A DNA stretch of 64,000 nt from an uncultured Anaerolineales bacterium (GTDB lineage Bacteria; Planctomycetota; Phycisphaerae; FEN-1346): contig CAYWVR010000001.1 of assembly GCA_964461715.1 (NCBI GenBank), positions 14,400 through 78,399 of the forward strand. The letters run 5' to 3'. The position numbers and the translations under genes were made by a program. The notes under the pieces were generated by a model. That model was not told the DNA's origin, made no database searches, and was given only the letters and a program-made list of their open reading frames with translations. Position 1 is the stretch's first letter; every line of letters begins with the position of its first letter. This document shows, one piece after another, positions 342-32,077 of the stretch.

Positions 342-354
342 CGGGAGACACACG

Positions 355-1554: not shown

Positions 1555-1560
1555 AGACCC

Positions 1561-11655: not shown

Positions 11656-12603
11656 ATGAAACGTCGTGCGTTTACTCTGGTCGAGCTCCTCGTCGTCATC
11701 ACCATCATCCTGATGCTCATGGGCATCCTGATTCCGGCGGTGTTTGACGCACTGGAGCAGGCCCGCCGCACGCAATGTGCGAGCAATCTCAGCCAGATCG
11801 GCAAGAGCTGCCGAACCTGGGCCTCGTCCCACCGACAGGCGTGGCCGGACGTTTTCACGTCCGATTCCGCCGAGTGGGACGACGTCGGCAACACCCGGGT
11901 CGACGAGTACGACCCCGCCACGGCGACCGAACAGCCGAGTATGGTCCCCGAGGACGAGCCGGACGACGGCGATCCGATCAACTCGAACACCGGGAACTTC
12001 TGGCGGCTTTGCAGCGGCATGGGGCTGGACCCCGAGATCTTCATCTGTCCGTCGCAGAGCAGCCATCAGCCCGACCAGGTGGTCGACTACACGCAGGTCC
12101 GGGATTTCCGCGGTGAGAACTTCGTCAGCTACTCCTACCAGAACGTCTTCGGGGCCTACAAGCTGACCGAGGCGTCCGGCAAGGCGGCCCAGCTGGCTGT
12201 CGCCGCCGACGCCAACCCTCAGCGCCAGGACTTCTACGGGTCTGCCGAGTTAGTCACGGACCAGTACCTCGCCGGCGAACCGAAGTTCCAGCCGTCCGAC
12301 GCTGCCGACGAGTGGAACCAGGACGTCGATGCCATCACCGATCCCTGGGACCTGAACAGCCCGAACCATCAGTTTGCCGGACAGAACGTCCTCTATCTGG
12401 ACGGTCACGTCCTTTGGCAGGACCATCCTTACTGCGGCTCGCAGTGGGACAACATTTGGACCTCCAAGGACCTGACGGTGACCGATTCGATCGATCCGAC
12501 CGACATCACGTCGCTCCAGGGCTTTGTCGACACGGCGTCCTACACGACGAACGACGAGGGTCTGACCGCCGGCGCGATCGGCGACTCATTCCTCGTGCCG
12601 TAG
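11656..12603 (+). CDS. Prepilin-type N-terminal cleavage/methylation domain protein with C-terminal H-X9-DG (DUF1559) domain
   Basis: [25 protein letters not shown] class-III leader. C-terminal ...[10 protein letters not shown] motif. GGAGG RBS 8 nt upstream. Confidence 0.8.
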
Positions 12604-12629
12604 GGTTGGACCTAGAGGCAGGCGCTTCC

Positions 12630-12675
12630 GGCGGCCTCGGCTCCTTGCGAGTCGGGGCCGCCGCTCTTTTTTCTT
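12630..12675 (+). terminator. Intrinsic terminator after the DUF1559 gene
   Basis: GGCGGCC...GGCCGCC stem (12630-12662) followed by GCTCTTTTTTCT. Confidence 0.6.
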
Positions 12676-12733
12676 CTGAAGGCTACACGGGCCCCTATAA
12701 TGGCCGGACTTGTTCCACAGGTGGATGCAGCGC

Positions 12734-17400: not shown

Positions 17401-17944
17401 CTTCTGGCTGGGCCTGGCGGACGAGCCCGGCAAGCAGGTCGACTGGCTGGGCCAGGACGTGGGCCTCTACACGATCGCCGGCGTCGCCATCTGGCACGGT
17501 CTGGCCATGCGCATCATCCTGCTTCTGGCCGGGCTCCAGTCGATCAACCCCGAGCTCTACGAGGCGGCCAAGGTGGACGGGGCGGGGCCCTGGAGCCGGT
17601 TCTGGCGTGTCACCTTGCCGGAGATCATGCCCATCCTCATCATTATCGCCTTCATGGCCTTCATCGCCGCCGCCCGCGCCTTCAGTCCCGTCTACGTCCT
17701 GACCGAGGGCGGCATCAATCACTCCAGCGAGGTCGTCGCCACCTACATCTTCAAGAAGGGCTTCACGAAGCCGGAGGGCACCGAGCCCGACCTCGGCTAC
17801 GCCTCCGCCCTCGGCATCGTCTACAGCGGCATGCTCGCGGTGCTGACCCTGGCGAACGTCATCATCATCGTCCGACGATGGAAACGCCGCCTCCAGATGG
17901 AGCGGCAGGCCGGCGGGCCCGCGACCGAAAGGGCCAAGGCATGA
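14462..17944 (+). CDS. Fusion protein: very large extracellular solute-binding domain (~730 aa) fused to a MalF/UgpA-type ABC permease domain
   Basis: GTG start after an AAGGAG RBS. N-terminal signal anchor. C-terminal 6-TM permease with the EAAKVDGAGPWSRFWRVTLPEI 'EAA' loop. Continuous 1160-aa ORF. Confidence 0.7.
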   Translation: MSRKRIGFLVAAVGVVVLLSSWGRVADWTEAVLRGEEQVRSKKVVYWTTSGSPEVNLKRARQFEQMYPDINVEPNFRETGGIQDILFVSFLSGNPPDFMGNTKVNELRKYILMGGVRPLDDLMRREDAFLRNQYLKRGLKAYREVREYEPGELIQTDVLRRENPNLEAELLGHRLREWTESFRERQGRAPTEAETDDARARLARALAAETQDLYFRQHLMGEARLFRFKLNPEDAYLQNLEANPLEAARLLHMNGKAVAFRDIAMPRILTYNKRLFREAATMFPEAGLVDGHGDPVPPSTWLEFYRTARLLSEYGRRAAVDRGLAEPICYGLTMQGQRDRDLMRGIWPLARRAGSMQFEYRGDTERVARHFDRETEAGREAARAFGDRPIGYFDYEDDAYLAAFALLYKLRQDGYVLPGVESRHYEDVRTALASGQAGMLLDGWHAALIGAERVPWAAQDLGSAPVPLPYHDVDPDAGWPAEAVAKEKEELSELLSLDEAGVTLPPGNKLPQSAADNVTLFTSLCRDPDAAWEWNHFANRNIEVMKTETRRGTVRMEREAVAHIGDPEWFPYPYQEQVYGIIEHHCAMWPERPLHGPVEVPNEREIFYRWFYQTDTNDLGLILTRAREQLQTFSDAANADLARRIRDGLVRPENWTFPDFEPQRAEAFFARQQNPEVDPDAEARLGEARAKLIAWARAHPEAGLLNEAGTDIREDIWQWKASTSPWQLLWIPGLMAGVVLGWFAWTGLRHAFGRKPTEGRLLGRARRGWWGYVFALPGMLVVFAFAIYPSLYQFFLALHTGDGLGPMRYVGLGNFHRIFTRDMTFWTTVLPNTAVFMVLVAVGQIVLGLLFASLLNLPLKANRLYRLLYFIPLVTSLAIVSVILIGLLKGEASALNALLTSLSWWHLALAALALVALGLVLTLLFTLWLRPQGSAASRVAQGVVLLVLLAVTGLGLHALLAGNSQIAAWLGLARPLGNLAFWLGLADEPGKQVDWLGQDVGLYTIAGVAIWHGLAMRIILLLAGLQSINPELYEAAKVDGAGPWSRFWRVTLPEIMPILIIIAFMAFIAAARAFSPVYVLTEGGINHSSEVVATYIFKKGFTKPEGTEPDLGYASALGIVYSGMLAVLTLANVIIIVRRWKRRLQMERQAGGPATERAKA

Positions 17945-19737
17945 CACGAGACGGTCCCCGCATCGACAAGGCCCTCCTCCACCGCTACCGGGCGGGCTTC
18001 TGGACCTGGATTTGCTACCACTGGCCCATGGTCCTCGTGCACCTCGCCCTCCTGACCCTCGGCCTCGTCAACCTCTACCCCTTCATCTGGATGCTCGGCA
18101 CGAGCTTCAAGTCCGAGCAAGAGGCTTCCATCGAGAAGCTCCGGCCCGTGCCCGGGCCCAAGTACAAGCTGGCCGAAGGGTTTGACCTGGAGACGGTCGT
18201 GCCCGCCGCCCTGGAGCCCGACCTTGCGGCCGCCGAGGGCGAGGCTCGCCTCGATGCCCTCAACCTCGTCCGCCGCAAGCTCGAGGTGCTTCACGACCTC
18301 CAGCGACGGGCCTGGGCCGAGCGCGTCGAGCACGAGGTCAGCTTGGTCGTCGGTCCCCTGGACGATGAGATCGTCCGCCTCAAGGCCGAGGCGGACCGTC
18401 TGGCCCGGGTGTGGGACGCCAAGCGCGAGGCCGCCCGGCGAGGCGAGGTGCCCTGGCCCGAGGTCGACGCATTCGAGGCCCGGCTCGACGCCGCCCGACG
18501 CGCCTACGAGACGGCTCGCGACGCCGCCACCGGGGCCGCCGTGCGCGGGCTTCTGGAGCGCGGCGTGCTTGTGGAGGACCCGGTCCATGACAGCCTCTGG
18601 TTCTCCGAGGCGGGTTTCGCCCGGACCTGGCCCAAGGCCCTGACCCCGCGCCAGAGGGCCGCGTCCGAGGCCCTCTGGGACCATTTCACCCTCGGCCCCA
18701 TCCGCTACGCGAACACCGTGGCGGTTGAGCTCGAGACCGCCCGCCGCCAGATGGCCGAGTGGGCCACCATCGCGGGCGGCATCCTGGTTCCCGTCGGCGA
18801 AGCGGTCGAGGGCGAGACGGTTTATCGCCTGGCGGAGGGGGGGCGCGGCCGGATCTACCGCGACCTCTATCCCCGCCAGATTCTCGCCCTCTGGCTTATG
18901 CACGCCGAGAACACCCGCCGTGCCGAGAGCCGCAACACCTTTGCCACCGACCGCTGGAGCCCGGAGGATTACGGCAAGTATTTCGGTCTGGCCGACGTCG
19001 AGCAGGCCCGGGCGGAGCTCCGGGAGGCCGTCGAGGCCGGGTACCTGGCCGACGGGACGGCCCAGCCGATTAACTACTGGGTCGTGCTGAAGGAGGAGAA
19101 CTTCCTGCTCCACTTCCTGACGAGCCTCCTCATCACGAGCGTCGTTGTGGTGGCCTCGATCCTGCTCTCCTCCATGCTCGGATACGCCCTGGCTCGCGGC
19201 TCGTTCCCCGGCAAGATGCTCGTGCTGGGCGTCCTGATTGCGGCCTCCATCCTTCCGACCGAGGCCCGCATCATCCCCATCTTCAAGATGCTCCTGGCCG
19301 TGGGGGCCCTGGAGAACCTGTGGGGCATGGTGGCCTGGCTCTCGAGCGCCGGCGTGGGCCAGACGCTCCTGATGGCGGGCTTCTTCCTGACGCTTCCGAA
19401 GGAGGTGGACGAGGCGGCCGAGGTGGACGGGGCGGGCATCTTCCGGAAGTTCTTCGACATCGCTCTGCCCATGGCCCGGCCCATCGTCATGACCGTGGGC
19501 CTCTTCGCGTTCCTCGGGGCATGGAACAACTTCCTCGTGCCGCTCCTGTGCACCATCTCCCGCCCCAGTATGCAGCCGCTGGCCGTCGCCGTGTACAGCT
19601 TCCAGCAGGGCCACCCCGGCAAATGGCACCAGATCAACGCCGCCGCCGCCGTCATGATCATCCCCGTCATCGTCATGTTCCTGTTCGTGCAAAAGCATGT
19701 CGTCAAGGCCATCGCCGTCGGGGCGGTCAAGGGATAA
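17941..19737 (+). CDS. ABC sugar permease (MalG/UgpE-like) with a ~300-aa periplasmic insertion between TM1 and TM2
   Basis: ATGA overlap with the upstream gene. TM1 YPFIWMLGTSFK, EAA loop (EAAEVDGAGIFRKFFDIALPMARP) and C-terminal TMs. Confidence 0.75.
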   Translation: MTRDGPRIDKALLHRYRAGFWTWICYHWPMVLVHLALLTLGLVNLYPFIWMLGTSFKSEQEASIEKLRPVPGPKYKLAEGFDLETVVPAALEPDLAAAEGEARLDALNLVRRKLEVLHDLQRRAWAERVEHEVSLVVGPLDDEIVRLKAEADRLARVWDAKREAARRGEVPWPEVDAFEARLDAARRAYETARDAATGAAVRGLLERGVLVEDPVHDSLWFSEAGFARTWPKALTPRQRAASEALWDHFTLGPIRYANTVAVELETARRQMAEWATIAGGILVPVGEAVEGETVYRLAEGGRGRIYRDLYPRQILALWLMHAENTRRAESRNTFATDRWSPEDYGKYFGLADVEQARAELREAVEAGYLADGTAQPINYWVVLKEENFLLHFLTSLLITSVVVVASILLSSMLGYALARGSFPGKMLVLGVLIAASILPTEARIIPIFKMLLAVGALENLWGMVAWLSSAGVGQTLLMAGFFLTLPKEVDEAAEVDGAGIFRKFFDIALPMARPIVMTVGLFAFLGAWNNFLVPLLCTISRPSMQPLAVAVYSFQQGHPGKWHQINAAAAVMIIPVIVMFLFVQKHVVKAIAVGAVKG

Positions 19738-19995: not shown

Positions 19996-21033
19996 TTACC
20001 GGAGCACGAAGTACCCGTGCCCGACCACATCGAAGACCTTCTCCTCGAGGATCGCGAGGCCCGCCGCGCGGAAGAGGGCGCGCCACTCGGCGGCGGTGCC
20101 GATCGTCTGGTTCGTGAGGTCGTGGTAGAGGTGGTGCTCGAGGAAGGCGGTGGGGCTCTTGCGGAGCTTTTCGTGGGGCTGCTTGCAGAACTCGCCGATG
20201 TAGAGCAGGGCCCGTGGGAACTGCGTCCGGAGCGACCTCAGGAGACCCACGATCCGATCCGGGCCCTCGTCCAAGTACTCGTGGTACGTATCGACGGCGG
20301 TGACGGAATCGACGTCCGCGTGCTTTTCTGCGACGGCCGCCAAGTCGAACATGTCGCCGTCGCGGACCTCGATCCGCTCGCTGAAACGGCTTTCGGCCAA
20401 GACCTCACGGGCGTAGCGGACCGTGGGCGGGTCGTTGTCGACGCCCACGGCCCGGATCGCCGGGTCCGTCTCGGCCAGGTAGAACAGGAACGCCAGGTCC
20501 CCGCAGCCGAGGTCCAGGACCTTGCGGGCCCCGTGCCGGTGCAGCATGTCCGCGAGGACGGGGTAGGGCAGCGTGCGGCAGAGTTGGCCGCTGCCGCGCC
20601 CGACGTACTTGCCGATCCTCTGGACGTCGTCGGGATAGGCGGCCTCGCCCCTGAGGAGGTCGGGCAGGGCGTCGAAAACGGGGGCGTAGGCGTAGGTCAG
20701 CTCGAAGAAGCCCCGGGGCTCGCCCATCAGGCGTCTCAGCTTCGGCAGGGCCCGGACCCCGCCGCCCTCGACGCGCACCAGGCTCAGGCCGTCGAGGTAG
20801 TCGAGGACGCTCTCGAGGACGCGGCGGTCGAGCTTGCCCTTGCCTGCCAGGTCCTCCAGGGCGACCGATTCGGTCTCCAGGAGCCGGTCCAGGACGCCCG
20901 TCTCCAGCAGGGCCCAGAGACACCCGCAGGTGGCGTAGCCGCGGACGTAGGGCAGGGCCTCGTCGAATCGCCGCTTCAAGCGGATGCTGCGGCGAAAGCC
21001 CAGCAGCTTCATCACTTCGAGGGCTTGGCTCAT
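19996..21033 (-). CDS. Class I SAM-dependent O-methyltransferase-like protein (with N-terminal dimerisation/wHTH domain)
   Basis: VLDLGCGDLAFLFYLAE motif I and an acidic motif (VDND). Start MSQALEV overlaps the upstream stop by ATGA. Confidence 0.75.
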   Translation of the reverse strand: MSQALEVMKLLGFRRSIRLKRRFDEALPYVRGYATCGCLWALLETGVLDRLLETESVALEDLAGKGKLDRRVLESVLDYLDGLSLVRVEGGGVRALPKLRRLMGEPRGFFELTYAYAPVFDALPDLLRGEAAYPDDVQRIGKYVGRGSGQLCRTLPYPVLADMLHRHGARKVLDLGCGDLAFLFYLAETDPAIRAVGVDNDPPTVRYAREVLAESRFSERIEVRDGDMFDLAAVAEKHADVDSVTAVDTYHEYLDEGPDRIVGLLRSLRTQFPRALLYIGEFCKQPHEKLRKSPTAFLEHHLYHDLTNQTIGTAAEWRALFRAAGLAILEEKVFDVVGHGYFVLR

Positions 21034-21791
21034 GGCGTCGGCTCCTCGGCGGGGGCGGCCTCGATGACGAGGGCGTCGTAGCGGGCCCGGACCCGCTCTC
21101 CGGGCGACAGGACGAGGAACCGCTCCGGGTCCCATCGTCCGTCCAGGCCCTCCTGCACCAGCCCCAGGTCCCCTTGGACGTCCATGAACTCCCATCCGCG
21201 CTCGGCGCAGATCTCGCGGACCCGCTGCTTCAGCTCTGGCGGCCGGTGGAAGGGGAACTCGATCAAGGCCCCGTGCGTGTAATGCTCCTCCCACCCGCCC
21301 ATGACCTCCGCGAGGTACCGGGCGTTCTCCTCGCCGTACTTCGCGACCCGCTCGTCCCACTTGGCCCGCCTGTACTCGGGACCCAAGCCGCTCTTGGCCA
21401 TCGGCTCAACCTGTTCGGCCCGGTCGCGGCATTCGAGCCACCCGCTCGAGTACCAGTACGTGCCCGGGTGCCGCTCGAAAAGCTCTGCGTACCGTTCCTT
21501 GGAGCCCAGAAGGAGCGTGATGCAGTCGTGGGCTCGCGGGACGACCAAGGGCACGCGACCCGCCCGGATGCCGTCCATGGCGTTGTTGCAGAGGCCGTAG
21601 CCTAGGACGAGGGCGTCGTAGCGGTCCGGGTCGGTGTCGTCGACGAGGGGCTGGAGTCGGTCGCGGCAGAGGTCGCTGTTGTCGTGGAGGCCCTGGGGCA
21701 GCAGGACGACGTCGACGACGGCCTCGGCCCGGGCGGCGCAGCGGTACATTTCGCGCCGAAGCACGTCGCAGGCCACCACCCGGAGTCGCAT
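21030..21791 (-). CDS. DUF1638 domain protein
   Basis: ...ALVLGYGLCNNAM...PRAHDCITLLLGSKERY..., resembling the DUF1638 signature. TGATG overlap with the GH3 stop. Confidence 0.55.
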   Translation of the reverse strand: MRLRVVACDVLRREMYRCAARAEAVVDVVLLPQGLHDNSDLCRDRLQPLVDDTDPDRYDALVLGYGLCNNAMDGIRAGRVPLVVPRAHDCITLLLGSKERYAELFERHPGTYWYSSGWLECRDRAEQVEPMAKSGLGPEYRRAKWDERVAKYGEENARYLAEVMGGWEEHYTHGALIEFPFHRPPELKQRVREICAERGWEFMDVQGDLGLVQEGLDGRWDPERFLVLSPGERVRARYDALVIEAAPAEEPTP

Positions 21792-23515
21792 CACGCGTCC
21801 TTCCGTTCGCGGGCGACCCTGTAACACGCGCTGCCGGGGAACCGGCGCTCGAATTCCACGTCGCCGACGAGGAACTTGTGCTTGTACTGCTCGACACGTC
21901 CGCCCGTCCGGTCGATGGCCTCCGTGTCGTAGGCGTGCCACGTGCCCGGCGGGAGCGTCCGGACGCGGATGGGGTCGAGGCGTCCGCTGGCCCGTTTGGC
22001 GGCGTACTCGATGTTCAGGTCCACGAGGGCCCGCTCCACGGCTTCGGCCAGGGCCGGCCCGCGTTCGGGCGCCACGGCGGCCTCCTCAACGAGGAGGTCG
22101 TAACAGGGCGCCTCGTCCCAGACGGGGCAGAGGCAATAGCTCTCGACCGGCAGGCCCAGGGCCGCCACGGCCCCGTTGACGGCGGTCACGACCTGGTGCT
22201 CGGTCAGCTTCTCGCCCGTCAGGCTGGAAACGTGCCCCCCTTTGTTCAGGAACCGGATGACGGGGACGGGACCGGACCGGCCGGTCACCTCGACCAGATC
22301 GCCGATATCGTAGCGGAAGAGTCCGGAGGGGGTCGTCAAGACCAGGAAGTACCGTTCGCCCACCTGCGTCTCGTGCGGCAGGAGCGTCGGAGCGTCGGGC
22401 CGGCCCGCCTCCTCCTCGGGCAGGAACTCGAACACGGTGCCCCGGACGTCCAGCACGCCGGCCGATCCGTTCGTCTGGAGGGGCACGGAGAAGCGGCCCT
22501 CGCTGGCCAGCAGGCCGATGTCGCGGACCGGGACGTCGCCCCACACCTCGGGCATCCGCCGCAGGTAGAGCTCCAGCGTCCCGCCCTTCCAGGTTCCGAT
22601 CAGCGGCACGTCCCAGGTGTCCTTCGGGTAGAGGTGGCCGGTGGCCCGGACGATGCGTTCCAGGGCCCGGGCGCGGTCGGGCATGGCCTTCAGGGCCCGC
22701 TCGATGCGGGCCCGGTGCTCCCGGTCGAGGGCGAGGTCGGTCCGCAAGGTCCCGTCTGAAAGGTCGCGCAGCAGGTCGTCCTTTGCCTCGTCCATCGTCC
22801 GCGCGAGGCCCAGCAGCGTGCTCGGATTGGCCGTCAGCGGCATCAGTCGCCGCACCTGGAGGCCCAGGCGGCACGCGAGATAGTACTTCGTGGCCGTGGT
22901 GCCGCTATAGGCGCTCTCGGGGGGCATGATGTAGAGCCAGCGGATGCTGCGTCGCTGGGCCTGGGCCGTCAGGCCGCTCATGGCCCCGGCGGGTACGCCG
23001 GAGGGCGTCGACTCCTCGTCCATGCGGCTGGCGAGTTGGAGGAGCTTGGCGCCGAAGGCGTCGTAGTGGTCGTTGAGTGCATGGACGCCCCAGACGTGCC
23101 ATCCCTCGCGGTAGGCCTTCAGGAGGGCGTCCGTCACGGGGATGTACTTCGGCGTGCCCGTCGTGCCGCTCGTCAGGGCGAACATGTGAACCGGGGTGTC
23201 GGGGCCGAAGAGGGCGGAGAGATCGCCCTCGCGGACGCGTTGGATGTAAGGCTCGGCCCTCTCGTAGCCCGCGATGGGCATGGCTCGGCGCAGGTCGTCA
23301 AGGGTGCGGACGCGGTCGAGGCCGTGATCGCGGGCGAAGTCGCTGCCCTCGACGATCTCGAAGATGCGGCGGAGGACGCGGGACTGGATTTCCGGCCCGC
23401 GCTGGACGGCCCGGTTCCAGCAGGCGACGTGCCGACAGGCCTCCAGGCGCAGGGGCGTCCAGAGGACCCGTCGCATCCGGATGGCCAGCGGGGTACCCAC
23501 GGTCGCTCCCGTCAT
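21791..23515 (-). CDS. GH3-family acyl-acid amido synthetase (adenylate-forming)
   Basis: FALTSGTTGTPKYIPVT phosphate-binding loop typical of GH3/JAR1-like enzymes. ~570 aa. The ATG at 23513-23515 overlaps the upstream hydrolase stop (ATGA). Confidence 0.75.
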   Translation of the reverse strand: MTGATVGTPLAIRMRRVLWTPLRLEACRHVACWNRAVQRGPEIQSRVLRRIFEIVEGSDFARDHGLDRVRTLDDLRRAMPIAGYERAEPYIQRVREGDLSALFGPDTPVHMFALTSGTTGTPKYIPVTDALLKAYREGWHVWGVHALNDHYDAFGAKLLQLASRMDEESTPSGVPAGAMSGLTAQAQRRSIRWLYIMPPESAYSGTTATKYYLACRLGLQVRRLMPLTANPSTLLGLARTMDEAKDDLLRDLSDGTLRTDLALDREHRARIERALKAMPDRARALERIVRATGHLYPKDTWDVPLIGTWKGGTLELYLRRMPEVWGDVPVRDIGLLASEGRFSVPLQTNGSAGVLDVRGTVFEFLPEEEAGRPDAPTLLPHETQVGERYFLVLTTPSGLFRYDIGDLVEVTGRSGPVPVIRFLNKGGHVSSLTGEKLTEHQVVTAVNGAVAALGLPVESYCLCPVWDEAPCYDLLVEEAAVAPERGPALAEAVERALVDLNIEYAAKRASGRLDPIRVRTLPPGTWHAYDTEAIDRTGGRVEQYKHKFLVGDVEFERRFPGSACYRVARERKDA

Positions 23516-24558
23516 CCCGCCTTCTGGCGGGGTTCCTCGGCGGCGTCCGGGCCGCACAGATACCGGTCGAAGAACGCCACCAGGTGGGCGGCATAGGTCG
23601 CCCGCTCGGCGACGACGGCCTGGTTATGCTTGGCCCCGGGGCAGATCCAGAGGTCTTTCCCGCCGGGCTTCTGCTCGTAGAGGGCCCGCGTGTGCTCCGG
23701 CCGCACATACGTATCGCGCTCGCCGCTGATAAACAGCATGGGCACATCCCTCAGCCGCGCCAAGGCCTTTTTCATGCTGGGGAAGCGGCAGCGGAGCTTC
23801 AGCTCGACGTAGAGCATGGTCATGGCCCGCATGAAGCGGCAGACGGGCGGGGAGGCGAGGTTGACGCGGGCGAAGATCTGGCCCCACCGCGTGATGAGCT
23901 GCTCGATCGTGTAATCGGTCGAGAAGACCCCGTCAAGGGCCAGGCACCGGATCGCGGGCTCCAGTACCGCCGCCACCGCCGCGGCGCTCGCCCCGCGACT
24001 GACGCCCAGGACCCCGAGGCCCCGCCGGCCGAGGTCGCGGCAGCTCTGGACGTAGGCGACGGCGGCCCGCACGTCGTTGACCTCGTGATGGCTGGGCCAG
24101 TGGCGGGGCTCGAAGTGCGGCGGGGTGAAGCTGCGGCCGTGGCCGCGAAAATCGAACGTGAAGACCTCGTAGCCTGCCTCGACGAGCGGCCAGGCGTACC
24201 GTCCCGCGCTGAACATGTCGCTGGCGAACTCGTGGCAGAAGATCACGAGGCCCCGTTCGGGCGCCCCCTTCGGACGCTCGACGAACATGCCCCGCAGGCT
24301 CCGCCCGTCCAGGCTCGGGAACGCGACCACTTCGCCCGTGGGAGGCTCGTAATCCTGGAGGTTGGCCGTGACGGGCAGCGGCGTGTCGAGGAAGATGTTC
24401 ACGCAAAGACGCAGATACCGGGCCAGAATGACCATCAGGACCAGCGCCGCCAGGCTGAGGACGGCAATGATCACCAGAGCGGGCCAGTGGTCGGCGAGGG
24501 ATGCGGGCGCGGATTCCGCGAGAAACCCGGTGCTCGGCCCTATCCATGCCGCTCTCAC
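23512..24558 (-). CDS. Alpha/beta-fold hydrolase with N-terminal TM anchor (possible thioesterase/lipase)
   Basis: N-terminal hydrophobic helix. HGRSF and GVSRG (GxSxG) nucleophile elbow. Confidence 0.65.
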   Translation of the reverse strand: MRAAWIGPSTGFLAESAPASLADHWPALVIIAVLSLAALVLMVILARYLRLCVNIFLDTPLPVTANLQDYEPPTGEVVAFPSLDGRSLRGMFVERPKGAPERGLVIFCHEFASDMFSAGRYAWPLVEAGYEVFTFDFRGHGRSFTPPHFEPRHWPSHHEVNDVRAAVAYVQSCRDLGRRGLGVLGVSRGASAAAVAAVLEPAIRCLALDGVFSTDYTIEQLITRWGQIFARVNLASPPVCRFMRAMTMLYVELKLRCRFPSMKKALARLRDVPMLFISGERDTYVRPEHTRALYEQKPGGKDLWICPGAKHNQAVVAERATYAAHLVAFFDRYLCGPDAAEEPRQKAG

Positions 24559-24639: not shown

Positions 24640-25932
24640 TCAGGACTCCGCGTACTTCCTCACGATGAGGGAATCGTTCTGGCCGCCGAAGCCGAACGAG
24701 TTGGACATGGCGACCTCGACCTCGGCCTGGCGGGCGGCGTTCGGCACGTAGTCCAGGTCGCACTCCGGGTCCGGGTTCTCCAGGTTCATGGTCGGCGGCA
24801 GAATCCCGTCGCGGATGGCCATGACGCAGGTCATCAGCTCGGTGGCCCCGGCGGCGGCGATGAGGTGCCCCAGCATGCTCTTGACACTCGAGACGGGCAC
24901 CTTCGTGGCCGCATCGCCGAAAACGACCTTGATGGCCCGGGTCTCGACCTTGTCGTTCTCGGTCGTTCCGGTGCCGTGGGCGCTGATGTAGTCGATCTGG
25001 CCGGGGGCCACGCCCGCGTTGTCGAGGGCCATCTGCATGGCGGCGGCCGGGCCGCGACCCTCCGGATGGATGTCGGTCATGCGGTAGGCGTCGCTGCTGG
25101 TTCCGAAACCGATCAACTCGCCGTGGATGCGGGCCCCGCGGTCCCGGGCGGCCTCCAGCTCCTCCAGGACCATGATCGTCGAGCCCTCGCCGAGGACGAA
25201 CCCGGCCCGTTCTCGGTCGAAGGGGCGGCTGGCCCGCCAGGGCTCGTCCTTCGGCTCCGTGGAGATGGCCGTCAGCAGGTTGAAGCCCGTCACTCCGAGG
25301 GGGTGGATCATCGAGTGCGTGCCCCCCGCGAGCATCCGGTCCGTCCGCCCGGTGCGGACCAGCTCCAGGGCCTCGCCGATGGCCTGGGTGCTGGCTGCAC
25401 AAGCCGTCAGACACGAGAAGACGGGCCCGCCGAGGCCGTACTCGCTCGCCAGGTGATTGGCGGGCATATTCGGCTCCTGCTCCAGCTCCCGCATGGCCTG
25501 GAACGTCTCCTCGCCCTTTCGGGCGAAGCGGGCGATGTCGAGGTCGCCGTCGGCGCCGAGGGCGTAGAGTGTGGAGACGGCCAGGCTCTCGAAGTCGATG
25601 GCCCCTTCGCCGCTCCCGAGGTAGATGCCGAACCGGTCCCGGTCCACGGCAGCCAGGTCCAGCCCCGAATCGTCCAGGGCCATCCGCCCGGCGGCGGCGG
25701 CGAAGCGGACGTTGCGCCCCCCGGCCGCGTACCGGGACGGGTCGCGAACGTACGCTGCGAGGTCGAATTCGGGCACTTGGGCCGCGAACGTCGTCGGGAA
25801 CGTCGACGCGTCGAAGATCTCGATGGGCCGGATGCCGCTCTTGCCCGCCACCAGGCCCGCCCACGTCTCTTCGTACGTGAAGCCGAGGGGCGTGATCGAG
25901 CCGATGCCCGTGATGACGACGCGTCGCTTCAT
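24640..25932 (-). CDS. Beta-ketoacyl-ACP synthase (FabF/KAS II-like), catalytically complete
   Basis: MKRRVVITGIGSITPLG. Cys in LTACAAST, His in SAHGTGT, Lys/His in VKSMLGHL. Confidence 0.85.
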   Translation of the reverse strand: MKRRVVITGIGSITPLGFTYEETWAGLVAGKSGIRPIEIFDASTFPTTFAAQVPEFDLAAYVRDPSRYAAGGRNVRFAAAAGRMALDDSGLDLAAVDRDRFGIYLGSGEGAIDFESLAVSTLYALGADGDLDIARFARKGEETFQAMRELEQEPNMPANHLASEYGLGGPVFSCLTACAASTQAIGEALELVRTGRTDRMLAGGTHSMIHPLGVTGFNLLTAISTEPKDEPWRASRPFDRERAGFVLGEGSTIMVLEELEAARDRGARIHGELIGFGTSSDAYRMTDIHPEGRGPAAAMQMALDNAGVAPGQIDYISAHGTGTTENDKVETRAIKVVFGDAATKVPVSSVKSMLGHLIAAAGATELMTCVMAIRDGILPPTMNLENPDPECDLDYVPNAARQAEVEVAMSNSFGFGGQNDSLIVRKYAES

Positions 25933-25969: not shown

Positions 25970-27298
25970 CTATCGGTTCAGGCGGACGACGGTGGCGGCG
26001 GTCTGGCCGCCGACGCCCCCGCTCGTGATGAGGGCTAGGTCGGACTCCATCGCCGCAGGTTCGCCCCGAACGAGCCTCAGGGCCACGTCGGGGGCGGGAT
26101 CGTCACAGTTCAGGACAGGCGGGACCTGGCGGGTCCGGGCCAACTTGCACAGGACCGCCAGGTCCGCGGCCCCGCTGGCGGCGCCCATGTCGCCCGTGAC
26201 GCCTTTGGTGGCGGTCACCGGCACGCGGGAGGCGGCCGACCCGAGGGCGGCCTCCAGGCCCGCGGCCTCGCTCGTATCCTGCGGCGGATAGGCCGATCCG
26301 TGGGCCACGACGGCCCCCAGGTTCCCCGGATCGACACCGGCGGCGTCCAAGGCGGCCTCGACCGCGAGGCGCGTGGCCCGTCCGTCGGGGTCGCACGCGT
26401 TGACGCCCGCGACCGTAACGGAGGCCCCGCAACCGAGGATTTCGCCGTAGACGCGGGCCTCGCGGGCCTCGGCTCCCTCCGCCGACTCCAGCATCAGGAT
26501 CGCCGCCCCTTCGGCCGCCACGAAGCCCGTCCGGGCGGCGTCAAAGGGTCGGGAGGCGGCCGCGGGGTCGCCCTCGGTGGTGGCCAGGCGGCCCAGCATC
26601 TGCATCCGCAGCATCAGGACGGGGTTGACGCGGCTCTCCGCGCCCCCCGCGAGCATCCGGTCGGCCGCCCCGCGCGTGAGGATCCGCGTCGCCTCGTCCA
26701 GGGCCAGCAGCCCCCCCGCGTCCCCGCACGTCAGCGAATTCGAGGGCCCCCGGGCGTCCCAGAGCACGCCCGTGTGGCAGGTGTGCATGTTCGGGAGGTA
26801 CTTGAGGAGCCACAGCGGGAACATCTGCGGGATGCCCCGCTCGCCCCAGCCCGTCATATCGAACTCGCCGTCCTCGGCGGCAGCCCGGACCGGACGGGCG
26901 ATGTCCTCGATCTCGGTGGGGATGAAGTTCGTGCCGAAGACGAGGCCGAACCGTGCGGGGTCGATGTCCGGAAGAACGGGCTCCTTGGCCTTGAAATCGC
27001 CGATTCTGAGGCCGGAATCGAGGATTGCCAGGTTTGAGGCGGCCACGGCCATTTGGATGTCGACGGCCATGACCTTGGCGTTCTTCTTGATGTAGCGGCT
27101 CTGGTCCTTGCGGACGCCGGCGGCGGGGTCGAACTCCAGGACCTCCCCGGTCACGTGGCTCGAAAAGGCGGACGGATCGAAGCGCCGGAGGGTCCGGACG
27201 GCACTGCGGCCGTCGCGAACGGCCTCGGCGAGGGCCCCGGCCCCGACGCCGGGGGGGCTGACCACCCCCAGCCCGGTGATCACGACACGACGTTCCAC
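25970..27298 (-). CDS. KS-like partner / chain-length-factor-like beta-ketoacyl synthase paralogue (second catalytic His replaced)
   Basis: MERRVVITGLGVVSPPG thiolase fold. First His retained (VAHGSAY). The GHL motif reads GDMGAASG (His to Asp). Confidence 0.7.
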   Translation of the reverse strand: MERRVVITGLGVVSPPGVGAGALAEAVRDGRSAVRTLRRFDPSAFSSHVTGEVLEFDPAAGVRKDQSRYIKKNAKVMAVDIQMAVAASNLAILDSGLRIGDFKAKEPVLPDIDPARFGLVFGTNFIPTEIEDIARPVRAAAEDGEFDMTGWGERGIPQMFPLWLLKYLPNMHTCHTGVLWDARGPSNSLTCGDAGGLLALDEATRILTRGAADRMLAGGAESRVNPVLMLRMQMLGRLATTEGDPAAASRPFDAARTGFVAAEGAAILMLESAEGAEAREARVYGEILGCGASVTVAGVNACDPDGRATRLAVEAALDAAGVDPGNLGAVVAHGSAYPPQDTSEAAGLEAALGSAASRVPVTATKGVTGDMGAASGAADLAVLCKLARTRQVPPVLNCDDPAPDVALRLVRGEPAAMESDLALITSGGVGGQTAATVVRLNR

Positions 27299-27314: not shown

Positions 27315-27815
27315 TCAGCCGGCGGTCTCGTCCGACGCGCCGAGCTTCTTCAGGTCGCGCATGCGGAGCATGCGGACGAAATCCTCGTTGAAGACGAAAT
27401 TCTCGCCGCCGGCCTCCACGGGGGCCCGCGACTGGTCGAGGTGGGCGAACATCAACTCCACCTCCCCCACCACCTCCTCGCCGCGCGTAATGCGGCCCTC
27501 GATGGAGGCCCCCTCCGGCCGCACCTCGCCCCGCACCGTCGCCTCGAAGCGGATCTGGTCGCCGGGGAGGACGAGACGGTGGAACGTGGCGCGCGTGACC
27601 TTCGCCAGGACCACCTTTTCCCGGAAATCGAAGGCCTCGCCCACCAGCACGCCGCCCGTCTGGGCCATGCCCTCGATCATCAGCGTGGGCGGATGGACGG
27701 GAAAGCCCGGGAAATGGTCGTGGAGATGCTCCTCGGCGAGCGTGACGTTCTTGACCGCGACGGCCCGCCGCCCGCTCTCGAACTCGAGGAACTTGTCGAT
27801 CCAAATCCAACGCAT
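27315..27815 (-). CDS. FabZ-like 3-hydroxyacyl-ACP dehydratase (hotdog fold)
   Basis: HFPGFPVHPPTLMIEGMAQ active-site His/Glu motif. Confidence 0.8.
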   Translation of the reverse strand: MRWIWIDKFLEFESGRRAVAVKNVTLAEEHLHDHFPGFPVHPPTLMIEGMAQTGGVLVGEAFDFREKVVLAKVTRATFHRLVLPGDQIRFEATVRGEVRPEGASIEGRITRGEEVVGEVELMFAHLDQSRAPVEAGGENFVFNEDFVRMLRMRDLKKLGASDETAG

Positions 27816-27893: not shown

Positions 27894-28292
27894 TCAGGCG
27901 CTTTCGCCCTCGAGCTTCGCCTCGATGTACTTGACGATCATGTCCACGGTGAAGAGGTCGGACATGTCCTGGACGGTCGGGTTCTTCTCGAACTCCTCGA
28001 GGTCGGCGTACGGCATCCGCTCCCGCAGCTCCGCCAGGCCCTTCTCGGTGAATTTCCCGTCCTGGACGAACTCATCGCTGTTCAGGACGTTGTCGGGGAA
28101 CAGGTCGCCGCGGGGCACCTTGATGTTGAAGGTCTTCTCGAGGCGGAAGACGATGTCGAGGAAGTCGATGCTTTCGGCCCCCAGGTCGGCCTGGATGCGG
28201 GCTTCCGGAGTCACCTCGTCCTCATCGACGCCCAAGGCGTCCACGAGGGCTTCCTGGATCTTCTCGAAGATCTCGTCGCGGCTCAAAGCCAT
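27894..28292 (-). CDS. Acyl carrier protein, elongated (132 aa)
   Basis: DLGAESIDFLDIV phosphopantetheine-attachment motif. ~50-aa acidic C-terminal extension. Confidence 0.7.
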   Translation of the reverse strand: MALSRDEIFEKIQEALVDALGVDEDEVTPEARIQADLGAESIDFLDIVFRLEKTFNIKVPRGDLFPDNVLNSDEFVQDGKFTEKGLAELRERMPYADLEEFEKNPTVQDMSDLFTVDMIVKYIEAKLEGESA

Positions 28293-28349: not shown

Positions 28350-28847
28350 TCAGCGGGCGGCGGACGCCTCCAGAGCCCGGGGACCTCCCATCAGTCGAAA
28401 CCGCTCCCTCAGGTGCTCTCGCAGCCGGTCGTCGATGTCGGTTCGGGCCGGGTCCTCGTCGACCACGTTCCGATGTGTCAGGACGAGCCGGGCCTGAATC
28501 CCCACCGTCCCGTCCCATCGTCCGAGGGCCTTGAATCGGCTCTCGTCGGGGCCGATCTCCCGGGCCTCGCACTCCAGGATCATCTGCCCGCCCGGCCGAA
28601 GAAAGTTGCCGTATCGGACGTTCCGGGCCTCCTTCAGGAGCACCAGCGTCCGACCGTAATCCGTCTCCAGCCGCACCAGCCACGCCGCCGCCTGCACCAG
28701 CGCCTCCAGCATCATGACGCCCGGCAGCACGGGATACGCGGGAAAATGGTCCGCGAGGTACTCCTCGCCCAGGGCCAGGCTCTTGACCGCGACGATCTTC
28801 TTGCCCGGCACGATCTCCTGGATGCGATCAACGAGATAGAATCTCAT
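28350..28847 (-). CDS. Second FabZ/FabA-like hotdog dehydratase
   Basis: ADHFPAYPVLPGVMMLEALVQ motif. Confidence 0.75.
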   Translation of the reverse strand: MRFYLVDRIQEIVPGKKIVAVKSLALGEEYLADHFPAYPVLPGVMMLEALVQAAAWLVRLETDYGRTLVLLKEARNVRYGNFLRPGGQMILECEAREIGPDESRFKALGRWDGTVGIQARLVLTHRNVVDEDPARTDIDDRLREHLRERFRLMGGPRALEASAAR

Positions 28848-29001: not shown

Positions 29002-30090
29002 TCAGGCCATCTGTTCCGCCACCTTCGAGAGCACCTCCAGCCCCCGCTCGATTGCCGCGGGCTCGGCGACGTACGAGATGCGGAAGTGCGTGTCCCGCTC
29101 GCTGAAGACGTTCCCCGGGATCACCAGGACCCCCGACTCGATGGCCCGGGCGCAGAAGGCCGTCCCGCTGCCGCCGGGGGCCTCCGGGAAGATGTAGAAC
29201 GCCCCGCCCGGCCGCACCACCTCGAATCGCTTCGAGAGGCCCTCGTAGACGAGGTCCCGCCGCGCGCGGAACGACTGGGCCAGGTCCGTCGTATCGGTCT
29301 CCAGGGCCGCCACGGCCCCCCATTGGAGCGGCGACGGGGCGCAGACGAACGTGTACTGCTGGAGCGTGGTCATCGCCCCGATCACCTCGGCCGGCCCGGC
29401 CGCGTACCCCATCCGCCAGCCCGTCATGGCGTGGGTCTTGGAGAACCCGCGAAGCAGGATGACGCGGTCGTAGAGGGGCCAGGGCGTGGGGCTGGGGCCG
29501 TCGTAGCTGAACAGGTTGTAAATCTCGTCCGAAAGAACCACGAGCCCGTGCCGCCGGGCCACCTCCACCGCCCCCGCCACCTCCTGCTCGGTATAGACCG
29601 CTCCGGTGGGGTTCGTGGGGCTGTTCAGGACCAGCATCCGCGTCCGTTCCGTCACGGCCGCCTCCAGCCGGTCGGCCCGCAGACGGAAATCCGGGTACGT
29701 GTCGACGAAGACGGGCGTCGCCCCGATCAGGTTCACGAGGTGCTTGTACATGACGAAGTACGGGTCGGGAATGAGCACCTCGTCGCCGGGGTTGACCGTG
29801 GCCAGCAGGGCCAGAAGAATTCCGCCGGAAACGCCGCTGGTGATCAGCAATGGGGCCTCGAAGGTCCCGAATTCCTCCGCCAGGCGCCCCCGCACCGCCT
29901 CCCGCAGGGCCGCCTCGCCCTGGGTCACGGTGTACCGGTTCGAGCCACGGCGGATGGCCTCGATGGCGGCTTCCTTGCACGCTTCGGGCACGTCGAAATC
30001 CGGCTGGCCGATCGAAAAGTTGATCGGGTTATCGAGCTTGGCCGCCAGCTCGAACACCTTCCGGATGCCGGAGGCGTCCACGAGGTCCAT
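29002..30090 (-). CDS. Pyridoxal-phosphate-dependent aminotransferase, class I/II (AspC-like). Start approximate
   Basis: IGQPDFDVP, NRYT, SKTHAMTGWRMGY (PLP-lysine) and C-terminal fold. Confidence 0.8.
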   Translation of the reverse strand: MDLVDASGIRKVFELAAKLDNPINFSIGQPDFDVPEACKEAAIEAIRRGSNRYTVTQGEAALREAVRGRLAEEFGTFEAPLLITSGVSGGILLALLATVNPGDEVLIPDPYFVMYKHLVNLIGATPVFVDTYPDFRLRADRLEAAVTERTRMLVLNSPTNPTGAVYTEQEVAGAVEVARRHGLVVLSDEIYNLFSYDGPSPTPWPLYDRVILLRGFSKTHAMTGWRMGYAAGPAEVIGAMTTLQQYTFVCAPSPLQWGAVAALETDTTDLAQSFRARRDLVYEGLSKRFEVVRPGGAFYIFPEAPGGSGTAFCARAIESGVLVIPGNVFSERDTHFRISYVAEPAAIERGLEVLSKVAEQMA

Positions 30091-30245
30091 GCGGCAAGCC
30101 AGGCGGGACGATTCGGCCACGGACAGGCTCCTTTCGGCTCTGGAAGGGCCTCTTCGTCGGAAACAGCCCCGCCCCGCGGCCCGCTTCCATCGGCGGACAG
30201 GGGGCGGACGAATCGGTCTCGGGCGACGCACGGCGGCGACCGGGC

Positions 30246-30503
30246 TCAGCTCTCCTCGGTTTCCGGCACGGTCTCGCCTTCGGCGGCTTCGAGGGCGGCG
30301 GCGGCTTCGGCGGCCTTTTCGGCGGCGGCGGCCTTCTTGCGGGTCTGGACCTTGCGATGGGCCACTTTCGGCAGGCCGAAGACGTCGCCCTCCTCGTCCC
30401 AGCGATCCTCCTCCTGGAGGACCTCGACCCGTTCGGCCCGCGTCAGCACGTTCCGGTGCCGCTCCAGCTCGCCCTTACTCCGAAGACTCTTATCCATCGA
30501 CAT
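30246..30503 (-). CDS. Small conserved basic/acidic protein (85 aa), function unknown
   Basis: MSMDKSLRSKGELERHRNVLTRAERVE... followed by a Lys/Ala/Glu-rich tail. Clean ORF with consistent codon usage. Confidence 0.45.
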   Translation of the reverse strand: MSMDKSLRSKGELERHRNVLTRAERVEVLQEEDRWDEEGDVFGLPKVAHRKVQTRKKAAAAEKAAEAAAALEAAEGETVPETEES

Positions 30504-30548: not shown

Positions 30549-31322
30549 CTATTCAACCAGCACCGTGTACGCGTCCGCGGACGTGTACCAGCCGGTCTCG
30601 CGGCCGAATTCCCGGAGCAGCTCGTTCATCGTCCGTGCGTAATCGTTCGTCTCGGCCTCGGTGGCGAATCGACGTTTCGTATACAAGATGTAGTACCCGC
30701 CCCGCGAGACGATCTCCAAATCTATGCCCCGCTGCTGGAGGAACGCCAGCAAACGGTTCGTGTACTCCTCCTTCGCGACCGATAGACGCATTAACCGGAC
30801 GCGATACCGCTCGGCGGGCGTCTCAGGCGGCATCTCCTCGGCCCCGTCGGGCGTCTCGGCGACGGCTTCTTCCTCGCCCGCAGTAGCGTTTTCGGATGCG
30901 TCAGGGCCGATTTCGCGCTCTTCGCCCGCTCCCGGTATCTCGGCCAGGCCCGGCGTCACGGCCCCCTTTCGGACCGCCTCGAAGGCCGGCTCGCGGGGCG
31001 GGGAGGGCAGCTTCTCGCCCGTTTCGCCGCCTCCGCCGCTCAGCCGGGCCCCGAGGAAGTAGAAGATCGCACACAGGCACAGCACGGCGACGATCACCAC
31101 CGCCAGCCAGTAGTACGAAATCCACACCCCGCCGTACGCAATCGGCGTCTGGAGCGGCACGCCGGCACGGGCCGGTTTTTCGTCCCCCCGGGCCGCCGAA
31201 GGTTTCTGAGGCCGCCGTACGACCGGTTCCGGCCGGGCCGGCGCCTCCCCCTTTTCGTCCCGCTCCTCGCGTTCCCGGGCAAGGAGCTCAAAGAGGGCCC
31301 GGTGCTGCGGTTTCTTGGCCAT
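30549..31322 (-). CDS. Membrane-anchored protein with C-terminal SPOR-like domain (possible septal peptidoglycan binder)
   Basis: Basic N-terminus, single TM (WISYYWLAVVIVAVLCLCAIFYF), Glu/Pro-rich linker. C-terminal ~80 aa with a SPOR-like pattern (YRVRLMRL...YYILY). Confidence 0.4.
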   Translation of the reverse strand: MAKKPQHRALFELLAREREERDEKGEAPARPEPVVRRPQKPSAARGDEKPARAGVPLQTPIAYGGVWISYYWLAVVIVAVLCLCAIFYFLGARLSGGGGETGEKLPSPPREPAFEAVRKGAVTPGLAEIPGAGEEREIGPDASENATAGEEEAVAETPDGAEEMPPETPAERYRVRLMRLSVAKEEYTNRLLAFLQQRGIDLEIVSRGGYYILYTKRRFATEAETNDYARTMNELLREFGRETGWYTSADAYTVLVE

Positions 31323-32077
31323 CGCGTCCTCTCCGGGCGCACCATCATCGCCGGGCAGTGCGCAGAGTATAGATGCCTCGGCCGCCGGCCGTCAAGGGGC
31401 AAGGGAACACAATCGGGCATCTATACGCGTAGGGCACCGGAGCCGTGACGGTCTCGGATGGGGCGCGCCCTCCCGCGGGTGTTAACCTGGGAAAGATGGG
31501 TAAGCTTCCCGCCCCTTTTGGCGGGATTCGTGAAACGTTTTACCCCTAAGCGACACACTTTTCGCGACTTTTTGGGGGGTAGTCGGGGGGTTCTCGAACG
31601 TTTTGCCCCCTTTCTTGCGCGAACTTGCCCCCCTTTTGACCCCCTTTCGTCCGCATCTTCTAGATCTTCGTCGGCCGATCTGCCGCATAGAGCGAAACCG
31701 CCTGCGCAAAAACGAACGCCCTGCCCGAAATCCCCGGCGTCCGCGCCCGCCGTCGCCCGGTGCTCGGCGGCCCCCCCGTGCATCCGGGGCTTAGGATATC
31801 TGGAATCTATATTGTACACAAGCCCCGGCCGGGGCGATGGTCGGGACGGTCGGCGAGAGCGTCGCGCCGCCGCTGCGGGGACCGAAAAAAGGATAGATAT
31901 AAAGGACGGGCCGTATCTCGATCCTGCCCGGAGCTTGCGCGCCCGGCCCGCTTGCGGGCCGGCGAAACGGGCGCGGGGGTGCGCGGGGGCCCGTTGTCCC
32001 TTCGGCCCTTCCGTCTTTGACGTTGCCCCTGCCGCGCTCGCGCGGTTCAATAGGCGGCGGGGACGGAGGGAACGCGG
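31323..32077. other. ~750-bp non-coding region with lower-GC islands and direct repeats
   Basis: No credible ORF. Motifs GAAACGTTTTACCCC / GAACGTTTTGCCCCCTTT / CCCCCCTTTTGACCCCCTTT repeated. Contains TATATTGTACA and GATAGATATAAAGGA AT-islands. Confidence 0.5.

Follow-up and report, generated by a model that had tools for sequence, protein, structure and literature searches.

A long minus-strand Phycisphaerae operon with a GH3-family ligase, its own acyl-chain genes and an apparently facultative DUF1638 gene

We analyzed a 64-kb stretch of a Phycisphaerae contig (CAYWVR010000001.1, assembly GCA_964461715.1; hereafter the window, 64,000 nucleotides [nt] long). Four overlapping minus-strand genes in it encode an alpha/beta-hydrolase, a GH3-family protein, a DUF1638 protein and a methyltransferase (the block, 19996-24558). 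They form the end of an operon of roughly 11 kb that runs from about 31.4 kb down to 19996. The stop/start overlaps between the four genes are real, but such overlaps are common in the window and are ordinary operon junctions. Judging from gene neighborhoods in related loci, DUF1638 is an optional gene that goes with the methyltransferase rather than a standing partner of GH3. The product of the operon is most likely a lipoamino acid or aminolipid. Taken together, we favor, with moderate confidence, one long operon for such a lipid, in which DUF1638 is a facultative helper of the methyltransferase and the overlaps reflect operon compaction.

Junctions in the window and in related loci

The first-pass annotation, which was made from the sequence of the window, had reported three stop/start overlaps on the minus strand, and these are borne out (Table 1). 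On the reverse strand, the hydrolase/GH3 junction reads ...GCG GGA TGA with ATG ACG..., the GH3/DUF1638 junction ...GAC GCG TGA with ATG CGA... and the DUF1638/methyltransferase junction ...ACG CCA TGA with ATG AGC.... The start codons, on which the overlaps depend, are upheld by several observations. Starts and stops of all four genes are identical in the gene calls of an independent gene caller on two identical public contigs (L001 and L002). The N-terminus of DUF1638, MRLRVVAC, aligns with the N-termini of 29 homologues, and each of the four starts is preceded by a Shine-Dalgarno-like purine-rich motif (AGGAGG, AGAAGG, GGAAGGA and GAGGAG) at a spacing of 4-8 nt. An alternative DUF1638 start, an in-frame GTG at 21794-21792, would make a GTGA 4-nt overlap with GH3.

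Table 1. Features of the operon and its stop/start junctions. Positions are those of the window.
Feature	Position	Strand	Basis and remarks
Sigma-70-like promoter match, TTGACG-18-TATACT, candidate operon start	31366..31395	-	10/12 consensus positions; consensus only, may not suit this phylum
257-amino-acid (aa) open reading frame (ORF), first gene of the operon	30549..31322	-	L001 gene call; no Pfam or NCBIfam match
85-aa ORF, no family match	30246..30503	-	L001 gene call; no Pfam match
Pyridoxal phosphate (PLP)-dependent class I/II aminotransferase	29002..30120	-	Gene call; NCBIfam
FabA/ApeI-like dehydratase 1	28350..28847	-	Domain match, gene call
Dedicated acyl carrier protein (ACP)	27894..28292	-	PF00550
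FabA/ApeI-like dehydratase 2	27315..27815	-	Domain match, gene call
Ketosynthase-like, chain-length-factor-like partner	25970..27298	-	Asp replaces catalytic Cys, second His gone; Pfam, pairwise alignment with neighboring ketosynthase
FabF-like ketosynthase, intact Cys-His-His triad	24640..25932	-	fabF model, 475 bits; pairwise alignment
Alpha/beta-hydrolase, predicted N-terminal membrane anchor	23512..24558	-	Pfam; hydrophobic N-terminal stretch in sequence
ATGA overlap, 4 nt	23512..23515	-	Hydrolase stop TGA 23514-23512 with GH3 start ATG 23515-23513; read from sequence
GH3-family (Gretchen Hagen 3) acyl-acid amido synthetase	21791..23515	-	All three Pfam GH3 domains
TGATG overlap, 1 nt	21789..21793	-	GH3 stop TGA 21793-21791 with DUF1638 start ATG 21791-21789
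DUF1638 protein	21030..21791	-	PF07796, 125.8 bits; gathering cut-off 27
ATGA overlap, 4 nt	21030..21033	-	DUF1638 stop TGA 21032-21030 with methyltransferase start ATG 21033-21031
S-adenosylmethionine (SAM)-dependent methyltransferase, metal-dependent alpha-keto-acid C-methyltransferase type (MppJ/MrsA/SgvM-like)	19996..21033	-	phmmer against PDB, AlphaFold2, Foldseek

Translational coupling by overlapping stop and start codons is classical; the trp operon of E. coli, with its ATGA or TGATG junctions, is one example. The window resembles such cases in its 4-nt and 1-nt overlaps, and at these junctions the Shine-Dalgarno-like motif lies inside the upstream gene, as in a translationally coupled pair. 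A scan with a sigma-70 consensus found no promoter-like or terminator-like site in 19996-24558, where an internal promoter had been named as a possible sign against coupling. Because the block is co-directional and gap-free, with no such site inside, co-transcription and some translational coupling of its four genes are very likely.

Unlike the classical cases, the window's junctions show nothing unusual, and the efficiency of coupling and the stoichiometry are not readable from sequence. The overlaps are not random, since the third codon position is A in just 3.9% of the codons of this operon. They are confined to its last three junctions; the eight upstream junctions in the gene calls are spaced by +16 to +154 nt. 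A start that gives a 4-nt overlap is possible in 10 of the 35 co-directional adjacent ORF pairs of the window (8 ATGA, 2 GTGA), and outside the block in 7 of 32 such junctions. These seven junctions, at predicted starts, lie near 2769, 5109, 33367, 38216 and 59076 on the plus strand and near 63403 and 36969 on the minus strand. Among the seven are MurG/MurC, MurB/Ddl and a pair of an extracytoplasmic-function sigma factor and an anti-sigma factor. The ATGA and TGATG junctions are normal operon compaction in a genome of 70% G+C. Since every gene of the block has its own Shine-Dalgarno-like site, a fixed 1:1 output of the four genes does not follow from the overlaps. The earlier proposal that such tight overlaps imply stoichiometric co-expression is thus supported for co-expression, and not supported for stoichiometry, given how frequent the overlaps are in the window and how labile the spacing is in the related loci described below.

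We compared DUF1638-centered loci from species-representative genomes (L009-L088) and GH3-centered loci from metagenomes (L092-L171), to which further individual contigs were added. Homologues of ten cluster proteins were located by tblastn, from which all cluster statistics derive. A greedy caller of longest ORFs picked many antisense ORFs in high-G+C loci, and its clusters were used only after a Pfam check of representatives. The window's GH3 clade (GH3 at least 49% identical to that of the window) comprises 52 unique loci, labelled Phycisphaerae or Planctomycetes. Their gene order is dehydratase, ACP, dehydratase, two ketosynthases, hydrolase, GH3, DUF1638 and methyltransferase, often with an aminotransferase gene before and a DUF362/ferredoxin gene after. 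A sister GH3 clade (43-48% identity to the window's GH3; 39 loci, with one Gemmataceae genome among them) usually shares this core, up to and including GH3, given enough flanking sequence, and has a ketoreductase where gene calls exist. The core from the first dehydratase to GH3 is therefore common to both clades. The methyltransferase and DUF1638 are confined to the window's clade, except for one locus, L172, with the methyltransferase alone. Where 2 kb or more of downstream sequence is available in the sister clade, DUF1638 is found in 0 of 21 loci and the methyltransferase in 1 of 21.

The order hydrolase-GH3-DUF1638-methyltransferase occurs in 39 of the 52 unique related loci, and its three junctions behave differently. 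By approximate count, the hydrolase-GH3 junction overlaps in 25 of 45 unique loci (12 at -4; range -17 to +307 nt). For GH3-DUF1638, 19 of 41 unique loci overlap, 10 of them at -1, while the spacing exceeds 30 nt in 17 (mostly -16 to +242 nt). The DUF1638-methyltransferase junction overlaps in 31 of 39 unique loci, 25 of which have exactly -4 (ATGA). Only this last junction is strongly retained; the first two overlaps are labile. The proposed check for conservation of the overlaps in orthologous loci therefore comes out positive for one junction of the three.

Clusters without DUF1638 also occur. In five unique loci of the window's clade (L095, L105, L108, L111 and L125), GH3 is followed by the methyltransferase after a gap of 83-219 nt, with no DUF1638. 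These loci fall in at least three places of the GH3 tree. L172 (GCA_022072085.1) has the same arrangement with a 24-nt gap, and its GH3 lies just under the 49% line. A further contig, L173 (GCA_040755855.1, JBFMAD010000005.1), has ketosynthase, chain-length-factor-like, dehydratase, ACP, hydrolase, aminotransferase, methyltransferase and DUF362 genes, and lacks both GH3 and DUF1638. It instead carries a B12-binding radical SAM enzyme, a ketoreductase and a second methyltransferase (Methyltransf_20).

Proteins of the operon

Over almost the full length of the methyltransferase, the sequence matches MppJ and MrsA, a 2-ketoarginine methyltransferase (phmmer against PDB; about 21% identity). The AlphaFold2 model of the window's protein (predicted local distance difference test [pLDDT] 92.7) has a two-domain fold, with an N-terminal helical dimerization domain and a Rossmann domain. 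In a Foldseek search of PDB with this model, MrsA gave a template modeling (TM) score of 0.83, MppJ 0.75-0.78 and SgvM about 0.70. The top 24 matches are all MppJ, MrsA or SgvM (TM 0.68-0.83), and O-methyltransferases rank below. In 111 homologues, conservation of His251, His304 and the SAM motif DLGCGD (174-179) is 97% or higher; in an alignment with MppJ, H251(-E252) and H304 fall on its two 'GHD' motifs. The alpha-keto-acid C-methyltransferase family is described as having an N-terminal dimerization domain and a His2 metal site, which in SgvM is formed by H244 and H296 (PMC10502145). By alignment, His251 and His304 probably correspond to these two ligands. On the NCBIfam equivalog for 2-ketoarginine methyltransferase, the protein scores 121 bits against a cut-off of 425, which suggests similarity at the level of the family and not the same substrate.

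Known members of this family, i.e., MppJ, MrsA, SgvM and MarI, are paired with aminotransferases in making beta-methyl amino acids (PMC10502145). The window resembles these pairs in the full-length sequence and fold match, in the predicted N-terminal helical domain, SAM motif and two metal-ligand histidines, and in the presence of a PLP-dependent aminotransferase within the operon. It differs in that the known examples feed peptide natural products and not a GH3 ligase, and in that the aminotransferase is absent from some related clusters. The best curated matches of the aminotransferase are arginine-modifying PLP enzymes, both below their cut-offs (GntC, 281 bits with a cut-off of 415, and VioD, 142 bits). 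Together with MrsA as the best structural match of the methyltransferase, these matches hint that the head group may resemble arginine or ornithine.

In DUF1638, conservation of Cys8, His36, Cys68, His88, Asp89 and Cys90 is 95% or higher in the cluster group and in the stand-alone group alike, while the C-terminal tail varies in length and sequence among homologues. The AlphaFold2 model (pLDDT 83) has no significant resemblance to a solved structure in PDB by Foldseek (best E 0.02, TM 0.2). Outside the cluster, we found about 70 DUF1638 loci at 40-59% identity, in Verrucomicrobiota, Acidobacteriota, Latescibacterota, Armatimonadota, Chloroflexota and other Planctomycetota. None of them has a GH3 or related methyltransferase gene within 10 kb by tblastn. 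Of these loci, 22 carry URO-D/MtaA-like, B12-binding, homocysteine S-methyltransferase or RACo/RamA-like genes.

Published work connects DUF1638 to corrinoid chemistry. Mutants of the Phaeobacter inhibens DUF1638 gene (PGA1_c13340) have the phenotype of methionine-synthase mutants, with methionine auxotrophy, and DUF1638 is found together with a RamA-like protein (PMC5764234). Ruegeria pomeroyi SPO2162, also a DUF1638 protein, was predicted to recharge cobalamin and placed in one group with RamA (PMC12478193). The cluster copy is like the DUF1638 proteins of split methionine-synthase and other corrinoid operons in its Pfam family and its invariant Cys/His/Asp site, and its gene likewise directly adjoins, and often overlaps, a methyltransferase gene. 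By contrast, the gene next to it in the window belongs to a lipid-type cluster and encodes a C-methyltransferase that uses SAM. We rejected the idea that the cluster DUF1638 is a specialized paralogue: stand-alone Phycisphaerae copies nest within the cluster clade (neighbor-joining tree, no support values) and the core residues are identical. Because of this nesting and the shared residues, the cluster copy looks like an ordinary orthologue of stand-alone and corrinoid-operon DUF1638.

The GH3 protein belongs to the Gretchen Hagen 3 family (PF03321, 184 bits; PF23571, 59 bits; PF23572, 66 bits), with its N-terminal, central and C-terminal domains all present; we rejected a reading of "GH3" as glycoside hydrolase family 3. 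Its nearest relatives in PDB are plant JAR1 and GH3.8 (E 1e-23). We take the nucleotide-binding motifs of the family, as defined from plant GH3 structures, to be an SSGTT..K-type P-loop, a ..SE.. motif and a YR.GD-type motif. T115-S116-G117-T118...K123, A337-S338-E339-G340 and R401-Y402...D406 of the window protein are invariant in 20 homologues. The hydrolase has a Ser186-Asp281-His310 triad that is conserved in 74 homologues, and its hydrophobic N-terminal segment is a probable membrane anchor. By analogy to OlsI, which is introduced next, it may act as an O-acyltransferase or thioesterase.

A route to ornithine lipids that uses a GH3-like protein and an alpha/beta-hydrolase was published in 2025 (PMC12493201). 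In Singulisphaera acidiphila, OlsH, a GH3-like protein, uses ATP and a free fatty acid to form N-acyl-ornithine; OlsI, an alpha/beta-hydrolase, then attaches the second acyl chain and OlsG N-methylates the ornithine-lipid product. The three genes are in one operon, and those for OlsH and OlsI were reported to be linked in all planctomycetes examined (PMC12493201). We judged likeness to OlsH by the NCBIfam OlsH model, and compared OlsI and OlsG by their published description. The window's operon likewise belongs to a planctomycete and joins a GH3-family ligase, an alpha/beta-hydrolase and a methyltransferase. Its hydrolase and GH3 genes are adjacent and overlap, as parts of one operon, and the position of the hydrolase relative to GH3 matches that of OlsI relative to OlsH. 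The hydrolase adjoins GH3 in nearly all clusters of both GH3 clades where upstream sequence exists. On the strength of the Singulisphaera operon, the pair is best read, by analogy, as an OlsI/OlsH-like module. By contrast, the genes stand in another order, the methyltransferase appears, from its best matches, to belong to the alpha-keto-acid C-methyltransferase type and not to the phospholipid-N-methyltransferase type, and an acyl-chain cassette, an aminotransferase and DUF1638 are added. On the OlsH equivalog (NF052613; cut-off 620 bits), the window's GH3 scores 109 bits and is matched only in its N-terminal third; sister-clade GH3s score 114-121 bits. By these scores, the window's GH3 is OlsH-like but of a different subfamily, and is not OlsH itself.

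The acyl-chain genes resemble aryl-polyene-type and type II polyketide-synthase-like cassettes in combining an active FabF-like ketosynthase with a Cys-less partner, two FabA/ApeI-like dehydratases and an ACP. They differ from aryl-polyene-type cassettes in that the window has no ketoreductase, which the sister-clade clusters do have, and in their coupling to a GH3 ligase. Aryl-starter, glycosyltransferase and export genes typify aryl-polyene clusters, and the window has none of these.

Roles of DUF1638 and of the operon

The first-pass annotation had argued from the overlaps that DUF1638 is a functional partner of GH3 and the methyltransferase. In its strongest form, DUF1638 would be a stoichiometric subunit of a complex with both enzymes, and the overlaps would enforce equimolar synthesis. 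This would fit the position of DUF1638 between the two genes in most related loci, the overlap of all three junctions in the window and the wide conservation of the last ATGA. In addition, the -4/-1/-4 pattern of the window is also possible in L009, although our start heuristic gave -10 for hydrolase-GH3 there. However, the spacing between GH3 and DUF1638 is often large (above 30 nt in 17 of 41 loci, up to 242 nt), GH3 and the methyltransferase occur without DUF1638 in six clusters, the sister GH3 clade lacks it in all 21 informative loci and DUF1638 orthologues exist without GH3 at about 70 loci. The frequency of overlaps in the window and the separate Shine-Dalgarno-like site of every gene also speak against enforced equimolarity. 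We consider such a complex very unlikely. With respect to GH3, it is largely refuted by the DUF1638-less clusters; DUF1638 is probably not a GH3 subunit, and the comparison does not support the claimed partnership with GH3. A link between DUF1638 and the methyltransferase, the other half of that claim, is plausible because the two genes overlap in 31 of 39 loci, in 25 of them with exactly ATGA, but six clusters keep the methyltransferase without DUF1638.

DUF1638 might instead be a housekeeping gene, e.g., for corrinoid or methionine-synthase maintenance, that hitch-hikes in the operon and does nothing for the lipid pathway. In favor of this, the cluster copy and the stand-alone copies are orthologues with an identical core site, the gene has repeatedly been lost or relocated, and the literature cited above ties the family to B12-dependent methionine synthesis. 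Moreover, among the 80 best genome hits, no cluster-bearing genome gave a second DUF1638 locus, whereas two other genomes gave two each (L053 and L062 in a Verrucomicrobiota metagenome-assembled genome, L021 and L079 in one of Gemmatimonas). In related Phycisphaerae, stand-alone DUF1638 follows MurD or PBP2 genes near gyrB-dnaN-dnaA. Against this, the slot of DUF1638 and its ATGA with the methyltransferase persist down to about 52% protein identity despite the variable tail, which suggests selection for co-expression of the two. The 64-kb window also contains no corrinoid-related gene (B12-binding, RamA/RACo, MtaA-like or homocysteine methyltransferase) and no riboswitch. A search for a riboswitch or other RNA upstream of the operon gave no Rfam match, and the whole window has no tRNA. 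On balance, a purely housekeeping DUF1638 seems unlikely, though it deserves some weight. It is less probable still that the block is a trimethylornithine-lipid operon like that of Singulisphaera, in the form OlsI-OlsH-(extra gene)-OlsG, whose methyltransferase N-methylates the lipid head group. The Singulisphaera operon does join the same three kinds of gene, in another order (PMC12493201), and the window's hydrolase and GH3 are of the same broad families as OlsI and OlsH. However, GH3 proteins of both clades score far below the OlsH cut-off, and OlsG is related to phospholipid N-methyltransferases (PMC12971839). The best matches of the window's methyltransferase, by both sequence and fold, are alpha-keto-acid C-methyltransferases, and both metal-binding histidines are conserved, which argues against its being OlsG. 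The published description of the Ols operon (PMC12493201) also does not mention a ketosynthase/chain-length-factor/dehydratase/ACP set or an aminotransferase, both of which the window's operon has.

We therefore return to the reading that we favor, a lipoamino acid or aminolipid operon with a facultative DUF1638. The dedicated ACP, the active ketosynthase with its inactive chain-length-factor-like partner and the two ApeI-like dehydratases would build a special acyl chain. The alpha/beta-hydrolase, probably anchored in the membrane, would release or transfer acyl groups in the fashion of OlsI, and GH3 would use ATP to acylate an amino acid on its amino group with the fatty acid, in the fashion of OlsH. 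The aminotransferase and the MppJ/MrsA-like metal-dependent C-methyltransferase would tailor the amino acid, with beta-methylation of the alpha-keto acid. DUF1638 may have entered the cluster together with the methyltransferase, would be facultative and losable, and would usually be translated from its ATGA junction with the methyltransferase gene. The overlaps would provide co-transcription and probably termination-reinitiation coupling. As the cluster copy looks like an ordinary orthologue of stand-alone and corrinoid-operon DUF1638, with the same Cys3-His2-Asp site, the most likely job of DUF1638 is to support the metal-dependent methyltransferase by metal or redox maintenance, although our confidence in this exact role is low.

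Several points weigh against this reading. GH3, the methyltransferase and the aminotransferase all score below the equivalog cut-offs, so substrates are not transferable from the characterized enzymes. The pairing of aminotransferase and C-methyltransferase is weakened by methyltransferase-bearing clusters from which the aminotransferase is missing (L017, L089 and L174). The support role of DUF1638 is read from gene neighborhood, and its repeated loss means that the methyltransferase can do without a cis-encoded copy. Starts in related loci were chosen by a homology heuristic, which makes the junction counts approximate, and the GH3 and DUF1638 trees are neighbor-joining trees without support values. 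Finally, the cluster is known from sequence alone, from which its product was predicted.

A bolder version would make DUF1638 a dedicated helper for metal-dependent methyltransferases in general, acting by metal insertion, redox repair or a cofactor. The operon would then make an undescribed class of lipid, in which GH3 joins an acyl chain derived from the ketosynthase and chain-length factor to an amino acid that is beta-methylated and possibly resembles arginine or ornithine. In corrinoid systems, homocysteine and MtaA-like methyltransferases are zinc-dependent. The Cys3-His2-Asp site of DUF1638 would serve corrinoid-system methyltransferases as well as the Zn/Fe-dependent alpha-keto-acid C-methyltransferase of this Phycisphaerae clade. 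We regard this version, taken as a whole, as improbable.

The overlaps themselves are textbook and routine, and the gene content of the operon is more useful. The operon appears to be a divergent relative of the recently described GH3/alpha-beta-hydrolase aminolipid route, and is widespread in Planctomycetota metagenomes. This relative has its own acyl-chain machinery and, in one clade, genes for amino-acid C-methylation, and it points to unknown membrane or signaling lipids. For DUF1638, the cluster adds a second, independent association with a methyltransferase, here of a different mechanistic class, and thus a lead on its function; methyltransferases with and without DUF1638 are a simple test system. 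In the literature searched, we found no description of a divergent GH3 subfamily joined to a ketosynthase/chain-length-factor cassette, of such a cluster extended by an MppJ/MrsA-like C-methyltransferase, an aminotransferase, DUF362 and DUF1638, or of DUF1638 in the context of a GH3/C-methyltransferase cluster.

Additional genes in and around the clusters

We now note properties of further genes at these loci. In many related clusters (among them L004 at 12076-13173, L009, L011, L014, L017, L089, L173 and L174), the methyltransferase is followed by a gene for a DUF362 protein with a 4Fe-4S ferredoxin domain, sometimes with DUF1571 next. The window has no such DUF362 gene; its operon stops at 19996, facing a convergent ABC-transporter gene.

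In L006 (8664-10813), L008 (8616-10741) and L007 (8094-10810), from genomes of the Phycisphaerae type, the DUF1638 gene lies outside the cluster, directly after a MurD-like ligase gene in two cases and after MreB-MreC-PBP2 in the other. The gyrB-dnaN-dnaA genes are only a few kb away. FtsW-MurG-MurC-MurB-Ddl are present in the window at 331-6080.

At the position of the 257-aa ORF that begins the window's operon, a 278-aa ORF without a Pfam match was called in L004. Small ORFs were called at the position of the 85-aa ORF in L004, L172 and L173. These ORFs, which have no family match, were compared by position.

Beyond the end of the operon lies a convergent pair of ABC-transporter genes on the plus strand. 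One (14462-17944) encodes a 1160-aa protein in which a solute-binding domain is fused to an ABC permease domain, and it overlaps the next permease gene (17941-19737) by 4 nt. Both genes are also found beside the cluster in L004.

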